Positions 1,603 through 16,490 of a stretch of DNA of 64,000 bases are shown here, piece by piece. The stretch comes from Acidobacteriaceae bacterium. Lineage in GTDB: Bacteria > Acidobacteriota > Terriglobia > Terriglobales > Acidobacteriaceae. Position numbers and translations under genes: made by a program. Every line of letters begins with the position of its first letter. Position 1 is the stretch's first letter. A model generated the notes under the pieces. It searched no databases. It saw only the letters and a program-made list of their open reading frames with translations, and was not told the DNA's origin. The stretch spans positions 2,773 to 66,772 of the forward strand of contig PLFY01000046.1 of NCBI GenBank assembly GCA_003138365.1. The letters run 5' to 3'.

Positions 1603-2502
1603 TCAATACAGTCCCGGCTCACCCGCCGGCCTGGTCTTCCAGCGGCGGTGAATCCAGAGCCACTGGTCAGGATAACGCCGAATCCAGGATTCGATGGCTT
1701 GCGTACACAGTTGCGTGGCGGCGAGGATGTCCTCGGCTGGGTTGGCGGTGTGGGGAATTTGGATTTCAGGGCCGAAGTGGAGGACGTAGCGGCGCTCGGA
1801 GGGCTCCCAAAGCATGAACCCCGGCAGCACGGCGGCGCCGGTCTTGCGAGCCACATGGGCCAGGCCGGTTGCGGTGCAGGCTTCAAGGCCGAAGAATTTT
1901 ACAAACGAGCCTTGGGGCGGGGTCATATTCGTATCCATCAGAATGCCGACGGTCTGGCCGGAGCGCATGGCGAGCAGCAGTCCGCGGCCGAAGTCGTCTT
2001 TGTGAATGACCTTGTTACCGTGAAGGCAGCGGATGCCATTCACAAAGTCGTCGAGGCGGCGGTTATCGAGCCGTCGGATGACCATGCCCATGGGATGGCC
2101 CATGAGGGAGTGGTAGAAGCTGGAGAGCTCCCATGCGCCCAGATGGCCGGTGACGACCAGAACACCCTTGCCGCGGGCCTGTGCGGCGAGATAGCGGTCA
2201 AGGCCCTCGGTGCGGAGCCATGCGCTGGTGTTTTGCGGGGTGTAACGGGTCATGCGGCAGAACTCGACCAGTTGCCAGGCCAGATGGACATAGACGCCGC
2301 GCAGGATGCGGTTTCGCTCGGCGGTTGAAAGCTCGGGGAGGGCGAGTTTGAGGTTGCGCACGCCCACGCGGCGAAGCCGGCCCAGCGCCCAATAGACGGC
2401 GATGGCGATGAGGCTGGCCAGCAGACGCGCCAAGGCGCGCGGTAGACGCCCCAGCGTGCGCGCCACAGCTACGACAAGCCAATACTCGAAATTCTCCCGC
2501 AT
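1603..2502 (-). CDS. Lipid A late acyltransferase (LpxL/HtrB family)
   Basis: HLGAWE (HxxxxD/E) motif, ILMDTN, and C-terminal YPDQWLWIHRRWKTRP; ATG at 2502 chosen as start. Confidence 0.92.
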   Translation of the reverse strand: MRENFEYWLVVAVARTLGRLPRALARLLASLIAIAVYWALGRLRRVGVRNLKLALPELSTAERNRILRGVYVHLAWQLVEFCRMTRYTPQNTSAWLRTEGLDRYLAAQARGKGVLVVTGHLGAWELSSFYHSLMGHPMGMVIRRLDNRRLDDFVNGIRCLHGNKVIHKDDFGRGLLLAMRSGQTVGILMDTNMTPPQGSFVKFFGLEACTATGLAHVARKTGAAVLPGFMLWEPSERRYVLHFGPEIQIPHTANPAEDILAATQLCTQAIESWIRRYPDQWLWIHRRWKTRPAGEPGLY

Positions 2503-2551
2503 GGTTGAAGGCAAAGATCAGTTTACCTTTCGATGCGGCTTGTTTTCTCGC

Positions 2552-3244
2552 CTACTGGTGGTATTTGGCCTTGACGAAGTACTGGGCCACGTCGCGGACA
2601 AACGCGACGGCTCCGGGCGGGACATCGACATTGCCCTTGAGGATGTCCTGAAAGGTGTGCGGCTGGCCGTAGTAAAGCTCAGTATCCTCGGAGTTCTGAG
2701 TGACGCTGGTGCCGTCCAGGTCAACCCCGGCAAAGAGGCCCTTGGCGCGCGAGTAGCTGAGCAGCTCGGCGTTCAACTTCCAGTCGGTGGCGGCCTGGCC
2801 GGCGCGGCCCACCGGACCGGCTGCCGCGGAGGCATCGCCGCCGATCTTGAACTTGCTCTTCAGCAGGTCCTGGAAGCCGCGGTCATTGACCGCAACCAGG
2901 ACCAGATCGGTCGACTGGCCGCCTATTTGAAATCCAAAAGACCCGCCGGCCATGCGAATAAAGACCGGCGCGCTCCAGCCGTGGCCGGTGCGGCAGGTCA
3001 CCACGCCCTGGCCGTATTGCGCACCCACCAGGATGGCGCCCTTGAGCATTCCGGGGACGACGCCGAGACAGGTGGCCTGCTGAAGAATATTCATGGGGAT
3101 GGTGCTGTCCTTGGCGGCCATGATGTGGTCCAGGACGAGCTTGGCTTCGTCGATGCGGGCCTGCAAGTCGTCGCGCGTGGAGGCGGCAAAGGCGGTGCAT
3201 GTGAGGATGAAACAGAGGCAGACGGAGGCAATGGTTTTGTTCAT
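2552..3244 (-). CDS. Secreted lipid-binding SYLF/YSC84-domain protein
   Basis: Signal peptide from MNKTIASV; GGSFGFQIGGQSTDLVL, AAAGPVGR and YSRAKGLFAGVDL motifs. The ORF-track extension to 3553 overlaps the repeat array and is not considered real. Confidence 0.9.
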   Translation of the reverse strand: MNKTIASVCLCFILTCTAFAASTRDDLQARIDEAKLVLDHIMAAKDSTIPMNILQQATCLGVVPGMLKGAILVGAQYGQGVVTCRTGHGWSAPVFIRMAGGSFGFQIGGQSTDLVLVAVNDRGFQDLLKSKFKIGGDASAAAGPVGRAGQAATDWKLNAELLSYSRAKGLFAGVDLDGTSVTQNSEDTELYYGQPHTFQDILKGNVDVPPGAVAFVRDVAQYFVKAKYHQ

Positions 3245-3441
3245 ATCCGTATCCTTTCCACAACAGCCTAAATCATGCGAGCGTACATGCGAGTGCATCG
3301 GCCACCAAGGCCGGGCCTTGGAAGGCACACACATGCACAGCGAAATGAACCGCCCTGAATGCTGGGATGCACGGATAGGCGTTGGGGAGGGCTGAATGAG
3401 TGAGGCGCAGAGGCGGTTTTCACTGGTTAGAGAGAAAAAGC

Positions 3442-3583
3442 AAAAAAAGAGGAGTTCCCAGACATCATGGAAAACATGCTGTCTAGAAACTCCTTTCCCC
3501 AGATCTGCGTTGTTTCTGTAAACCAGTCTGTGGGAAACGTGGACATGTTGCAAGGGTACGGAAGGAGCGTGGCGCTAAGTAAC
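3442..3583 (-). ncRNA. Candidate small RNA, array unit 1 (~140 nt)
   Basis: Putative promoter at 3589-3617, two adjacent hairpins, and a terminal hairpin (3451-3493) followed by a U-tract on the minus strand. Confidence 0.55.
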
Positions 3584-3588
3584 CACAA

Positions 3589-3617
3589 TGTTTACTAGTT
3601 GGTAAATGGGCTGAAAA
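3589..3617 (-). promoter_or_regulatory. Putative sigma70-type promoter TTTTCA-17-TAAACA with overlapping palindrome TTTAC-N6-GTAAA (3591-3606)
   Basis: 17-nt spacing; same position in unit 2. Confidence 0.45.
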
Positions 3618-3678
3618 GAGAGCGGGGGTTCGCGGAAAGCAGCGCGGTTTTCGGTGATGAACCATAGAAAGCCAACCC

Positions 3679-3843
3679 AAAAAGAGGAGTTCCCAGACGT
3701 CGCGGCGCAGAGAAGAAGGCGCCTGGGAACTCCATTCCCCAGATCTGCTTTGGTTCTGCGAATAAGTCTGTGGGAAACTAATCCTCAATGGTGGTCAATA
3801 TTGCTCAGTCTTTGGATTACGGAAGTCGCATGGCCGTAAGTAA
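3679..3843 (-). ncRNA. Candidate small RNA, array unit 2 (~165 nt, most divergent)
   Basis: Best promoter match (TTCTCA-17-TAAAAT). The GGAGTTCCCAG/CTGGGAACTCC stem is perfect although the loops differ from the other units. Confidence 0.55.
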
Positions 3844-3849
3844 CCGCAT

Positions 3850-3878
3850 ATTTTACTAATTGGTAAATGGACTGAGAA
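3850..3878 (-). promoter_or_regulatory. Putative sigma70-type promoter TTCTCA-17-TAAAAT with overlapping palindrome (3852-3867)
   Basis: 17-nt spacing; the conserved block GTTACTTA begins about 6-7 nt downstream. Confidence 0.5.
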
Positions 3879-3929
3879 GGGGGCCCGAGGATCGCAAAGC
3901 GGGTTTTCGTGGTGGGAGACGAAAAGACG

Positions 3930-4070
3930 AAAAAAGAGGAGTTCCCAGGCATCATGGAAAACATGCTGTCTAGGAACTCCTTTCCCCAGATCTGCGTTGT
4001 TTCTATAAACAAGTGTGTGGGAAACGTGGACATGTTGCAAGAGTACGGAAGGAGTGTGGCGCTAAGTAAT
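3930..4070 (-). ncRNA. Candidate small RNA, array unit 3 (~140 nt)
   Basis: -10-like TAAACT at 4076-4081 (minus strand), same two hairpins, terminal U-tract. Confidence 0.5.
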
Positions 4071-4151
4071 CGGAAAGTTTAATGGTTGATAAATGGCCGG
4101 CGGGACTCGTGGAGAGCAGAGCGGGTTTTCGGGACGAGAGACGAAAAAAAC

Positions 4152-4290
4152 AAAAAAAGAGGAGTTCCCAGGCATCATGGAAAACACGATGCCTGAGAAC
4201 TCCTTTCCCCAGATCTGCGTTGTTTCTGTAAACAAGTGTGTGGGAAACGCGGACATGCTGCAAGAGTACGGAAGGAGTGTAGCCATCGGT
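4152..4290 (-). ncRNA. Candidate small RNA, array unit 4 (5' end uncertain)
   Basis: Terminal hairpin 4161-4203 pairs over 19 bp on the minus strand if two G-U pairs are allowed, then a U-tract; the upstream region differs from units 1-3. Confidence 0.48.
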
Positions 4291-4315
4291 GACATGGCGT
4301 GTGTGAGGCGGGTCC

Positions 4316-4545
4316 GGGCTTTAGCCAGAGCCTAAACTGTGCATAATGAACGAAGCTTTAGCCACTGAGGTTGAGCTCTTCGAAGCCAAAGCATGCCTCA
4401 GGGGCTAAAGCCCGCGTTGATTCTGCTGCCTTTGTGCCGGGGATAAATCCCCGGCCTACCGCCCGAACGAGTTTTTCCGCAACCTGCAAAGGCCGCCATT
4501 TTTAGCGACCTGAATGTCAGTCAGGGCTGAGGCCCTGACCTACCG
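4316..4545. repeat. REP-like palindromic cluster
   Basis: GGGCTTTAGCC / GGGGCTAAAGCCC, CCGGGGATAAATCCCCGG and GTCAGGGCTGAGGCCCTGAC hairpins; similar to 16346-16490, 26281-26435 and 6641-6760. Confidence 0.75.
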
Positions 4546-4588
4546 TTGTCCCATGTTCCAGCCGAGTTCTTAGACAGGTTCTAAGGAA

Positions 4589-5318
4589 CTAACCGAGACG
4601 GCGCGCTTCCGCGCTCTGGCGGCGCTCGCCGCGGCGGCGCTCGATGGTCACGGCACTGGGCTTGATGGGATGGTTCATTTCGCGCATGGAGAGCTCCGTC
4701 CGGTTTTCGGTTCCGGTCTTGCGCATGAGGCGGCCCACATGGGCCTTTACGGTGCGCTCCTCAATGCCCAACTGGCGGGCGATCTCGCGATTGGAACAGG
4801 CCTGCATGATGAATTCCAGCACCTGGTGCTCCCGGTCGGTCAGGTGGGGGCTGCCGTTGGTGAGGCTGGTATCTGTCCCCTTCAGCAGGCGGTCAATGAG
4901 TTTGGAAAGCAGGCGGCGGGGCGCCCAAATCGAGCCGGCGGTGACCGCATCGAGGGCTTGGAGCACCATGTCCGCATCGGCGGTCAAATCCAGGTAGCCC
5001 CTGGCCCCGGCAAGGATGGATTCCAGGACCAGTTCATCGTTCCCATCCGGGCCGATGACAATCAGCCGGATGGAGGGACGCGCGCGGCGAACGGCCTCGA
5101 TGATCTCCAACCCCTTGGACGAAGAATGCAAGTCCACGAGCAGATACTCGAGCGTAGAGCGGGCCAGCAACTCTTCGACGCTCCCCAAAATCGGAAGCAG
5201 ACGGGGCTTCCCTGGCAGAGGAGGCTGCTCGAAAATGCTGGCGAGCCCCTCAAGGCGGATAGGTTCATCTGAAACCAAGCCAATATAAATTGGATCAATG
5301 TTACGGATCGAAAACATC
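4589..5318 (-). CDS. NarL/LuxR-family response regulator (REC + LuxR HTH)
   Basis: C-terminal LTDREHQVL...SNREIARQLGIEERTVKAHVGRLMRK and an N-terminal receiver-like domain. Confidence 0.92.
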
Positions 5319-5441
5319 TTGCTCTCCCGGTAAAACAGAAGGAGAGCTGGGCCCAGTGCGGTCGGGGAGCGAGCTTGGGCCCCCATCGCCGCACATTACG
5401 TACTTATCCAACCACCCCAACCAGATTGCTTGCGGCCACCC

Positions 5442-7868: not shown

Positions 7869-8720
7869 ATGACCAAAACCAGGTTTGCTCCTTCCGCTCT
7901 GTTTGAGAGTCAGCCGATACGCCGTGTGTACGACGAATCCACGGATACATGGTTTTTCTCGGTCGTCGACATCGTCCGTGTCCTCACGCAGCAAGCGGAT
8001 GCCACCGTTGCCCGGAAATACTGGAACAAGCTTAAACAGCGGCTGCATGAGGAGGGAAGTCAGTTGGTGACAAATTGTCACCAACTGAAGCTGCCAGCCT
8101 CCGACGGCAAGAGTTATCTCACCGATGTCGCCAATGCGGAGACGCTGCTACGGCTGGTTCAATCTGTTCCCAGCCCCAAGGCCGAACCCATCAAACTCTG
8201 GCTTGCGAAGGTGGGCTATGAGCGGCTGCGGGAGATCGCCGATCCGGCCTTGGGGTTGGAGAGGACGAGGGAAAACTGGCGCAAGCTGGGACGCAGCGAA
8301 AAATGGATCACCCAGCGCATGACTGGGCAAGAGACGCGCAACAAACTGACCGACTACTGGGTCGCCCACGAGGTCAAGCAGGGGGAGGAGTTCGCCATCC
8401 TCACCAATCTCATTCACGAGGAATGGTCCGGTGTATCGGTCAAGGAGCATAAGAACCTGAAAGGGTTGGAAAGCCAGAATCTTCGCGATCACATGAGCGA
8501 GGCCGAACTTATCTTCACGGCCCTGGCCGAGCTTTCCACCCGTCAGATCGCGGAGACGGAAGTGGCGGTGGGCCTGCCCGCTAACAAGAAGGCCGCGCAG
8601 TCAGGCGGCAAGATCGCCCAGCGTGCACGTGTCGAGCTCGAAAGCAAGACTGGCCGCAAGGTCGTCACCGGCGAGAACTATCTGCCGCCGGGGAAATCGA
8701 AAAAAGCACTCATGTCTTGA
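7869..8720 (+). CDS. Bro-N domain protein (phage antirepressor-like)
   Basis: IRRVYDE..WFFSVVDIV..L, YWNKLKQRL, DGKSYLTDVA and SPKAEPIKLWLAKVG motifs. Confidence 0.82.
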   Translation: MTKTRFAPSALFESQPIRRVYDESTDTWFFSVVDIVRVLTQQADATVARKYWNKLKQRLHEEGSQLVTNCHQLKLPASDGKSYLTDVANAETLLRLVQSVPSPKAEPIKLWLAKVGYERLREIADPALGLERTRENWRKLGRSEKWITQRMTGQETRNKLTDYWVAHEVKQGEEFAILTNLIHEEWSGVSVKEHKNLKGLESQNLRDHMSEAELIFTALAELSTRQIAETEVAVGLPANKKAAQSGGKIAQRARVELESKTGRKVVTGENYLPPGKSKKALMS

Positions 8721-16345: not shown

Positions 16346-16490
16346 ACAGGCTGCGGAAAAACTCGGTATTTCGGGTGAAATTGGCGGAAAGCGTCCCGCC
16401 GGGGCTAAAGCCAGCATTGATTCTGTTGGCTTTATGCGGGGGTTGAAACCCCCGCCTCCCTCCGAATCGAGTTTTTTCGCCGCCTGTTCA
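16346..16490. repeat. REP-like composite palindromic element
   Basis: CAGGCTGCGGAAAAACTC...GGGGCTAAAGCC...GCGGGGGTTGAAACCCCCGC...GAGTTTTTTCGCCGCCTG; the termini are inverted repeats; similar to 4400-4487. Confidence 0.75.

Follow-up and report, generated by a model that had tools for sequence, protein, structure and literature searches.

What are the four short, related units that follow one another between a LuxR-type regulator gene and a ysc84 gene in an Acidobacteriaceae bacterium? The stretch analysed, called the window below, comprises 64,000 nucleotides of contig PLFY01000046.1 (assembly GCA_003138365.1, positions 2,773 to 66,772 of the forward strand). A reading of its sequence from 2800 to 5000, combined with a repeat finder, gives four diverged direct-repeat units at 3434-4320, with minus-strand genes at 3441-4279. 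They had been proposed from the letters alone, in what is called here the sequence-only reading, as a candidate family of sibling small RNAs (sRNAs), that is, as four independently transcribed RNAs of 140-165 nt. It is well supported by the comparative evidence that the units are paralogous, terminator-ended genes for non-coding RNAs and that they belong to an undescribed Acidobacteriota family. Regarding their function, the favoured reading, which seems to us somewhat likelier to be right than wrong, is that a small non-coding RNA gene, conserved in the Terracidiphilus/Occallatibacter/Telmatobacter branch of the Acidobacteriaceae, was locally amplified into the array. The products would be regulator-linked sibling sRNAs that act in trans by base pairing and depend on a chaperone.

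The units are found where the sequence-only reading had placed them, with GGAGTT anchors at 3451, 3686, 3938 and 4161, and the repeat finder returns two families of four copies each, a 69-nt block and a 28-nt block. Units 1, 3 and 4 share 77-90% identity over 176 nt, with 90% between units 1 and 3. The window has four occurrences of the 20-nt core CAGATCTGGGGAANGGAGTT, always on the minus strand, compared with 0.01 expected by chance, and CUUCCGUA is identical in all four units of the alignment. Each unit ends in a terminal hairpin followed on the minus strand by a run of 5-7 U (an A-run before the inverted repeat on the plus strand), as had been seen from the letters. Units 3 and 4 have arms of 20 nt with 85-90% complementarity, and unit 2 has arms of 14 nt with 93%; the loop of unit 2 is longer and indeed rewritten, as had been noticed earlier. 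The array region has a GC content of about 50% compared with 60-65% in the coding flanks. The array escapes Tandem Repeats Finder, presumably since the divergence of the units and the indels that interrupt them keep it below the score threshold. Overlapping contigs from independent peat DNA metagenomes tile the array and break only at the repeated cores, and the depth of the units in peat DNA is about four times that of the flanks, matching four copies. For these reasons, the array is real and not an assembly artefact.

The anatomy of the family was derived from an alignment of 130 copies and its consensus. The RNA begins with a conserved 5' segment, CC.U..GUACUCUUG (in the window CUCCUUCCGUAC), followed by a variable middle of 33-35 nt and then, frequently, by UUUCC(C)ACA. 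The 3' half contains the invariant AGAAACAACGCAGAUCUGGGGAAAGGAG; an A-rich loop, AGAAACAACGCAG, made of three A-R-N triplets (AGA-AAC-AAC) that are at least 95% conserved; and the invariant UCUGGGGAAAGGAG, which pairs back to the upstream C/U-rich stretch. The copy is closed by a 19-pair terminator hairpin, the sequence of which is itself strongly conserved, and by the nearly invariant CUCUUUUUU. The U tail typically has 6-7 U and just 5 U in unit 2. Each unit has two adjacent GGA motifs in GGGGAAAGGAG and one more in the 3' strand of the terminator.

Two subtypes can be distinguished. Type A, of about 128 nt, includes units 1, 3 and 4, while type B, of about 153 nt and represented by unit 2, has an extra 21-24 nt containing UGAGCAAUAUUGACCA and is usually the second gene of a pair. 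Members of type B are present in at least 17 other loci, across species, so unit 2 is not a decayed copy but an orthologue of a paralogue that has been conserved. Within the type-B insert, YUGAGCnnUAUUGACCA is conserved amid variable surroundings (3760-3800 in the window; further copies at loci L001, L002, L004, L017, L024, L030, L039, L062, L065, L095, L099, L101 and L111), and the insert includes the palindrome CAAUAUUG and, in TTGACC, a sequence similar to a -35 box.

The secondary structure is most firmly established at the 3' end. Over the 130 sequences, the terminator helix is 93.8% paired, 10 of its 19 pairs have changed on both sides, and its pairing exceeds that of all 500 column shuffles and of all slid registers. 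RNAalifold, applied to the full alignment as the sequence-only reading had suggested, recovers this terminator and a 4-bp CAGA/UCUG helix only. A second hairpin, called hairpin B (UUUCCC-A-CAGA/UCUG-GGGAAA), is present in the units, with one mismatch in units 3 and 4 (CACA for CAGA). The changes in the terminator are compensatory, in line with the earlier statement that differences between units mostly keep the pairing; hairpin B shows no covariation. Among the conserved parts, the A-rich stretch AGAAACAACG is the one most accessible in ensemble folds, with a mean unpaired probability of 0.5-0.66, while UCUGGGGAAAGGAG and the terminator are paired and the GGA stretch is mostly so. A covariance model built on the family finds four copies in the window (80-134 bits) and no further copy. 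The sense strand scores about 130 bits and the antisense strand, where only the palindromic terminator matches, 35-45 bits.

How widely is such a unit distributed? An exact-pattern scan with one genome per species returned at least 120 stretches. At least 119 Acidobacteriaceae assemblies, each a different one, hold the exact core at one locus apiece, and one of the 120 listed matches falls by chance in the coding region of an actinomycete. The carriers include Terracidiphilus and many metagenome-assembled genomes from peat, bog, fen and soil, as well as two cultured strains with a single copy, Telmatobacter bradus DSM 23630 and Occallatibacter savannae AB23. Since this first sample was selected on the RNA's own sequence, a second sample was drawn, consisting of 80 metagenome loci chosen by the Ysc84 protein alone (74-86% protein identity) and searched with a covariance model built from the alignment of the genome loci. 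The RNA is present in 57 of the 60 Ysc84-anchored loci that have at least 900 nt upstream of ysc84, and a repeated search of the other three at E<=0.1 was again empty. The exact 19 specified bases are kept in 67 of the 82 copies of this sample, and a block of about 31 nt, AGAAA.AA.GCAGATCTGGGG..AGGAGTTCCC.GG, is at least 95% conserved at each position. The flanking intergenic DNA is unalignable among homologues, and the neighbouring proteins have diverged to 60-86% identity.

The copy number is one in most genomes and two or three in about one in five. Two or three tandem copies were counted with the covariance model in at least 18 of the 119 genome loci and in 13 of the 64 RNA-bearing metagenome loci, and the four in the window are the highest number in the study. 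The closest relative of the window (L095, with an LpxL 89% identical) has an array in the order A-B-A, while the window reads A-A-B-A in the direction of transcription (units 4, 3, 2, 1). Together with the 90% identity of units 1 and 3, this points to one further, recent duplication in the window.

The family does not correspond to a known RNA class. A search with Infernal (cmscan) against all 4227 models of Rfam 15, including the Acidobacteria motifs, gave nothing at the gathering score in the 64-kb window. At E<=10, the region 3200-4650 shows only hairpin-shaped chance matches to miRNA, snoRNA and sRNA models, of which the best is mir-335 (25 vs. 64 bits). No paper describing such an RNA in Acidobacteria was found by a full-text literature search. 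These results agree with the sequence-only reading, which had not recognised the units as any known RNA. Its proposal of a sibling family is supported by four paralogous copies, a covarying terminator and a single syntenic locus in each genome. A match to Rfam or to a mobile element, or a lack of covariation among homologues, had been named as grounds for giving up that proposal; neither match was found, and the terminator covaries.

The units are preceded by a DNA element of their own. The conservation profile defines it as TTAC-N6-GTAA-N6-10-GGTTACTTw, in other words, an inverted repeat, TTAC-N6-GTAA, and a third half-site, GTTAC, that overlaps a -10-like TACTTW (TACTTA in unit 1). The exact motif is present in 43 of the 200 fetched loci, and it ends about 10 nt before the RNA copy in every hand-checked case (e.g., L004, L011 and L098). 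In the window, it occurs only before units 1 and 2, with 0 expected in shuffles. The motif of unit 3 has three mismatches. The sequence upstream of unit 4 diverges from that of the other units, lacks the motif and has TCACCG instead of TTACTT as its -10-like hexamer. Sibling sRNAs are expected to have both a promoter and a terminator of their own; terminators are found in four of the four units here, and the upstream motif is exact in two, degenerate in one and absent from one. The earlier picture of four independently transcribed RNAs is, therefore, not supported for all units, and unit 4 could be transcribed only via read-through from the regulator gene, or it may be decaying. The upstream motif would act as a promoter. 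If TACTTw is taken as a -10-like hexamer, transcription would probably start at a conserved CA that follows it by about 6-7 nt. The resulting RNAs would be about 128 nt long, with predicted 5' ends near 3569, 3830 and 4056; these positions are guesses. Compared with the sequence-only reading, the 5' ends are shifted from 3583, 3843 and 4070, and the sizes are revised to about 128-153 nt. GUUACUUA, which had been counted as part of the RNA, is more likely part of the -10-like promoter element. The coordinates of the units and of the neighbouring genes are collected in Table 1.

Table 1. Predicted RNA units, their control elements and neighbouring genes in the window.
Feature	Position	Strand	Description and support
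Unit 1	3441..3569	-	Type A, ~129 nt; 5' CUCCUUCCGUA motif, hairpin B; covariance-model match 132.1 bits, full length; repeat families D1, D2 and D4; inverted repeat; alignment
Unit 1 terminator	stem 3450-3494, U-run 3442-3448	-	
Unit 1 upstream motif	3579..3605	-	TTAC-N6-GTAA-N7-GTTAC; exact motif match, 0 expected in shuffles
Unit 2	3676..3830	-	Type B, ~153 nt, insert UGAGCAAUAUUGACCA; covariance-model match 80.2 bits
Unit 2 terminator	stem 3686-3733, U-run 3679-3683	-	Rewritten loop; short U-run of 5
Unit 2 upstream motif	3840..3866	-	TTACCAATTAGTAAAATATGCGGTTAC; exact motif match
Unit 3	3928..4056	-	Type A, ~129 nt; covariance-model match 132.9 bits; alignment
Unit 3 terminator	stem 3937-3981, U-run 3930-3935	-	
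Unit 3 upstream motif, degenerate	~4066-4092	-	TTAT..TTAA..GATTAC
Unit 4	4151..4279	-	Type A, ~129 nt; covariance-model match 134.1 bits
Unit 4 terminator	stem 4160-4204, U-run 4152-4158	-	Hairpin also listed by terminator scan
LuxR/GerE-type regulator, directly upstream of array	4589..5386	-	Pfam GerE, E=7.6e-17; Response_reg 20.2 bits vs. cut-off of 30.2
dCTP deaminase (dcd)	6017-5442	-	
ysc84, SYLF-domain lipoprotein, usual downstream neighbour	2552..3244	-	Pfam Ysc84, 8.4e-37
lpxL	1603-2514		Minus strand; Pfam Lip_A_acyltrans, 1.7e-56

The genomic context is conserved together with the RNA. According to tblastn searches of the window proteins on 119 loci, the gene order is nearly always dcd - regulator - RNA - ysc84 - lpxL, with the regulator detected in 114, Ysc84 in 103, LpxL in 79 and Dcd in 74 of them, counts that are limited by the 8-kb length of the loci. 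The RNA starts 38-197 nt past the aligned end of the regulator (median 89) and lies 149-981 nt before the ysc84 start codon (median 353). In the Ysc84-anchored loci, the regulator and the RNA occur together in 49 cases, the RNA only in 1, neither in 3 and the regulator only in 0. The three loci without the RNA have an intact ysc84-lpxL pair, and both the regulator and dcd are absent from their upstream 3.5 kb. This indicates that the RNA travels with the regulator and not with ysc84. The ysc84-lpxL pair is best described as the context of the array and not as an established part of the system. The sole locus with an RNA copy and no regulator gene detected in the 3 kb upstream (L121:3056-3183) has a diverged copy of 71 bits, which may be a relic after regulator loss or relocation.

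The neighbourhood has further features of its own. In the receiver domain of the regulator, inspected by eye, the context of the phospho-acceptor Asp is kept (LLVDL) and the usual Thr/Ser and Lys positions are missing (IVIG, GYLDL). No kinase gene adjoins it in the window, and the protein may be an orphan regulator that works without phosphorylation. Most species have a GC-rich hairpin (e.g., CCGCGGCG....CGCCGGCGG) without a U-run directly before the conserved ysc84 ribosome-binding site GGAAAGGA (3245-3300 in the window); this hairpin may be a stem of the ysc84 5' untranslated region (UTR). The spacer between the regulator and unit 4 (4300-4589) contains, especially at 4374-4507, a palindrome-rich element (GGCTTTAGCC/GGGGCTAAAGCCC/CCGGGGATAAATCCCCGG). 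In DNA and RNA runs from peat, it is covered about 40 times as deeply as the flanks, many contigs exit from it into unrelated sequence, and one other partial copy is found in the window at 16401-16442. It looks like a REP-like dispersed repeat common to the community. The plus strand has, a few kb away from the array, an open reading frame (ORF) at 7869-8720 with a BRO-N domain (Pfam 6.4e-08), which is frequent in phage and prophage proteins; the local GC content is lower there (0.54-0.60), and the region may be the remnant of a prophage or an island.

Evidence of transcription was sought in assembled metatranscriptome contigs. Between 20 and 43% of the 31-mers of the array are present in peat metatranscriptomes, and the contigs, fragmented by the repeats, include 3505-3829, 3511-3922, 3750-3941 and 4014-4186. 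Such coverage could equally stem from read-through, DNA carry-over or expression. One of the contigs has its end at 3829, beside the predicted start of unit 2, and runs via the weak 5-U terminator of this unit into unit 1; this end is suggestive only. For a single-copy locus, soil and peat metatranscriptomes give a depth of 2-12, and the contigs continue past the terminator. For Telmatobacter bradus, a bioreactor metatranscriptome contains a single 183-nt contig (3040-3222) with a depth of 11.9, and the depth is zero over 2 kb of flanks. The regulator ORF of this species stops at 3162, within the upstream motif; the contig spans its final 120 nt and the initial 38 nt of the RNA. This contig shows that real RNA is made from the locus. 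In run X28, a peat metatranscriptome, a 1285-nt contig spans the regulator gene's 5' half together with upstream sequence (4766-4900 and beyond) at a depth of 238, compared with about 14 for the array and 0 for ysc84; either expression of the regulator-dcd region may be strong in situ, or several species may be pooled in the contig.

How might such a system work? According to the favoured reading, the functional unit would consist of the upstream DNA element, an RNA whose length is about 128 nt in type A and about 153 nt in type B, and a strong intrinsic terminator. A dedicated upstream element, a conserved 5' segment, an A-rich loop, a U-tailed terminator and paralogues that differ in their middle part match what is known of chaperone-dependent, trans-acting sRNAs. 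Regarding features of the Hfq type, a terminator with a long U tail is present, and AGA-AAC-AAC, with a mean unpaired probability of 0.5-0.66, is a candidate chaperone site. The adjacent, atypical LuxR-type regulator would control transcription of the RNA via the upstream inverted repeat. Such control is suggested by the tight linkage to the regulator and by the promoter-proximal position of the repeat, in parallel with UvrY/GacA; UvrY binds an 18-nt inverted repeat upstream of csrB and csrC (PMC4682653). In single-copy genomes, where the RNA gene begins inside the end of the regulator gene or shortly behind it, the terminator would probably be shared with the regulator mRNA. Extra copies would raise the dosage, and the split into types A and B would diversify the targets. 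Start sites, control by the regulator, chaperone binding and action in trans are all steps that we infer.

Several observations weigh against this reading. The upstream hexamers are poor matches to the sigma-70 consensus and a generic sigma-70 scan calls none of them, which is why the start sites are treated as guesses; the terminator scan calls only one terminator of the array because loops of more than 8 nt are excluded. Hairpin B and the small 5' hairpin lack support from covariation. Hairpin B is 75.5% paired, with 24.5% of cells unpaired, and its changes are one-sided only, the 3' strand being invariant. In minimum-energy folds of homologues without UUUCCCACAGA, GGGG pairs with the 5' CCCC/CCUU segment instead, so that hairpin B is plausible and not proven. 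The small 5' hairpin GUAC-UCUU-GURC is 79% paired, no better than shuffles. The search for targets in the five syntenic genes (-60 to +21) gave duplex energies for the non-terminator part equal to those of shuffled controls, and no covariation links the 5' motif to the ysc84 start region. One candidate pairing, between UCCGUACCCUU of unit 1 and the ysc84 start region AAGGAUACGGA (10 of 11 positions matching), was rejected since no covariation is seen in other genomes. In the 64-kb window, complements of the 5' motif and of the invariant block are found only in the units and at one chance-level site, 26970. Nor do the contigs show the discrete minus-strand RNAs anticipated by the sequence-only reading, here predicted at 128-153 nt: they cross the spacers as well as the units at a low depth of 4-14, similar to ysc84. 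The T. bradus contig starts about 145 nt upstream of the predicted RNA start. Finally, conservation is strongest in the 3' half, including the sequence of the terminator, which is unusual for a pure base-pairing sRNA and could indicate a protein partner.

This last point is the reason why a protein-binding RNA is kept as the main rival. The invariant 3' half, AGAAACAACGCAGAUCUGGGGAAAGGAG with the terminator, would then be a binding platform of a sponge or scaffold, and additional copies would raise its titration capacity, as for CsrB and RsmX-Z under UvrY/GacA, regulators of the LuxR family. It is in agreement with this idea that conservation includes paired terminator positions that are free to covary, that two GGA motifs stand side by side in GGGGAAAGGAG, that tandem multiplication is frequent, that no mRNA target was detected among the syntenic neighbours and that a LuxR-family gene and an upstream inverted repeat adjoin the RNA, as with UvrY at csrB/csrC (PMC4682653). 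Nevertheless, each RNA has only 2-3 GGA motifs, none of which lies in a hairpin loop, the hallmark of Csr/Rsm RNAs, and the GGA stretch is mostly paired in the predicted ensembles. Moreover, the inverted repeat stands beside the -10-like element and not far upstream as for UvrY (PMC4682653). On balance, a sponge or scaffold is regarded as a serious but unlikely explanation. A related idea, to be held with considerable reserve, is that the block of about 31 nt and the terminator are the docking site of a dedicated protein, such as the adjacent regulator or a global RNA-binding protein, and not a seed. If true, the locus would be an Acidobacteriaceae-specific regulator-RNA module of an undescribed kind, in which one to four copies set the capacity. 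The unit could also be the 3' UTR of the regulator mRNA, serving as a terminator or stability module in cis, possibly with a processed fragment, and the extra copies would be duplicated 3' ends. The short distance to the regulator, with no separate regulator terminator noted in the gap, fits such a role, as do the T. bradus ORF that enters the upstream motif, unit 4, which is nearest to the regulator and has no motif of its own, and the co-occurrence table, where the regulator never appears without the RNA. The sole T. bradus metatranscriptome contig bridges the coding end and the 5' part of the RNA, so some transcripts start upstream of the predicted start; this keeps the idea alive, and the regulator mRNA may, at least in part, supply the RNA as its 3' end. 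However, units 1 and 2 are located about 1 kb and 0.75 kb past the regulator stop, behind one to three strong terminators, and have kept the exact motif there, in non-coding DNA. Downstream copies in other arrays keep it too (e.g., L101, L161 and L199), and a pure cis element would need neither a conserved 5' motif nor an A/B split across species. We therefore consider the 3'-UTR explanation improbable.

The remaining explanations can be given much less weight. A cis-acting leader, riboswitch or attenuator for read-through into ysc84-lpxL would account for the same orientation and the position upstream of ysc84 in 103 of 119 loci, for the terminator at the end of the unit and for a possible pairing, noticed by eye in the alignment, between the ACUCUU of the 5' motif and an AGGAGU at the base of the terminator. 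It is a very doubtful option: the distance to ysc84 is variable, ysc84 lacks the RNA in 3 of 60 loci, exactly those that also lack the regulator, and ysc84 has its own conserved GC hairpin before its ribosome-binding site. In addition, the 6-bp alternative helix cannot outcompete the 19-bp terminator, and up to four complete promoter-to-terminator units misfit a leader. Least probable of all are a small protein and a mobile repeat. A 43-aa plus-strand ORF runs from the terminator loop (MENMLSRNSFPQICVVS...), with AGGAG 12 nt before an ATG in units 1, 3 and 4; ORFs of 41-49 aa are listed there, and a short minus-strand ORF is the other candidate. The peptide NSFPQICVVS recurs in homologues because the underlying DNA is invariant. 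Across the 130 copies, the plus-strand ORF can be as short as 12 aa or as long as 58 aa, and an in-frame ATG is missing from 10 of them. In unit 2, the frame is displaced by 5 nt, and the spacing of the conserved blocks is 33, 34 and 35 nt in 39, 56 and 6 copies, so no reading frame is kept on either strand. The three codon positions are equally invariant in the core, though the neighbouring proteins stand at 60-86% identity. It is scarcely credible, then, that a protein is encoded. Likewise, a dispersed or mobile repeat, such as a REP- or MITE-like palindromic unit, or an assembly artefact could be suspected because the unit is a short, palindrome-rich intergenic repeat and a genuine high-copy repeat adjoins it at about 4374-4507. 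Against this stand a copy number of just four in 64 kb, confined to a single array; one syntenic locus in each genome, across at least 119 species; and a unit depth of about 4 times the flanks versus about 40 times for the neighbouring repeat. The array is also reproduced by overlapping contigs from independent runs, and this explanation has almost nothing left to recommend it.

Acidobacteriota are among the most abundant bacteria of soil and peat. A literature search found no characterised regulatory RNA for this phylum. The family described here, tied to a regulator, present in at least 119 species and available as a single copy in cultured strains, offers a testable entry point to post-transcriptional control in Acidobacteriota. 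The series from one to four copies and the A/B split make it a ready system for studying how sibling sRNAs originate and diverge.

There are well-studied sRNAs with which the family can be compared. OmrA and OmrB are encoded by adjacent paralogous genes with conserved ends, a variable middle and their own terminators, under the response regulator OmpR. The units resemble them as same-strand, adjacent paralogues with conserved 5' and 3' ends, terminators and proposed control by a response regulator. There is no similarity in sequence or in Rfam, the regulator here is adjacent and of the LuxR type instead of the OmpR type, and up to four copies of two subtypes occur. Tandem sRNA arrays with their own terminators that arose by local duplication are known from LhrC1-5 in Listeria, CcsR1-4 in Rhodobacter and PrrF1/2 in Pseudomonas. 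Short genes in tandem, each with a terminator, are shared with these arrays, and the C/U-rich CUCCUUCC of units 1, 3 and 4 could pair with ribosome-binding sites. Unlike in these arrays, the C/U-rich 5' motif is only partly conserved (CC.U..GUA), there is no Rfam match, and the most conserved element is a purine-rich 3' block and not a CCUCC or UCCC loop. With CsrB/CsrC and RsmX/Y/Z, the family has in common a regulator of the LuxR/FixJ family, an upstream inverted repeat and multiplied copies (PMC4682653), whereas the many GGA-in-loop motifs are missing, the inverted repeat is promoter-proximal and the receiver domain is atypical. Similarly to sRNAs of the DapZ/MicL type, which are embedded in 3' UTRs and have an internal promoter, the motif overlaps the preceding coding end in one single-copy species and the terminator is probably shared; in contrast, the downstream array copies are free of coding sequence. 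The sibling-sRNA interpretation is largely supported by the comparative evidence. The family would be a new one of an already known kind, and its breadth, its invariance and its link to a regulator are what make it stand out.

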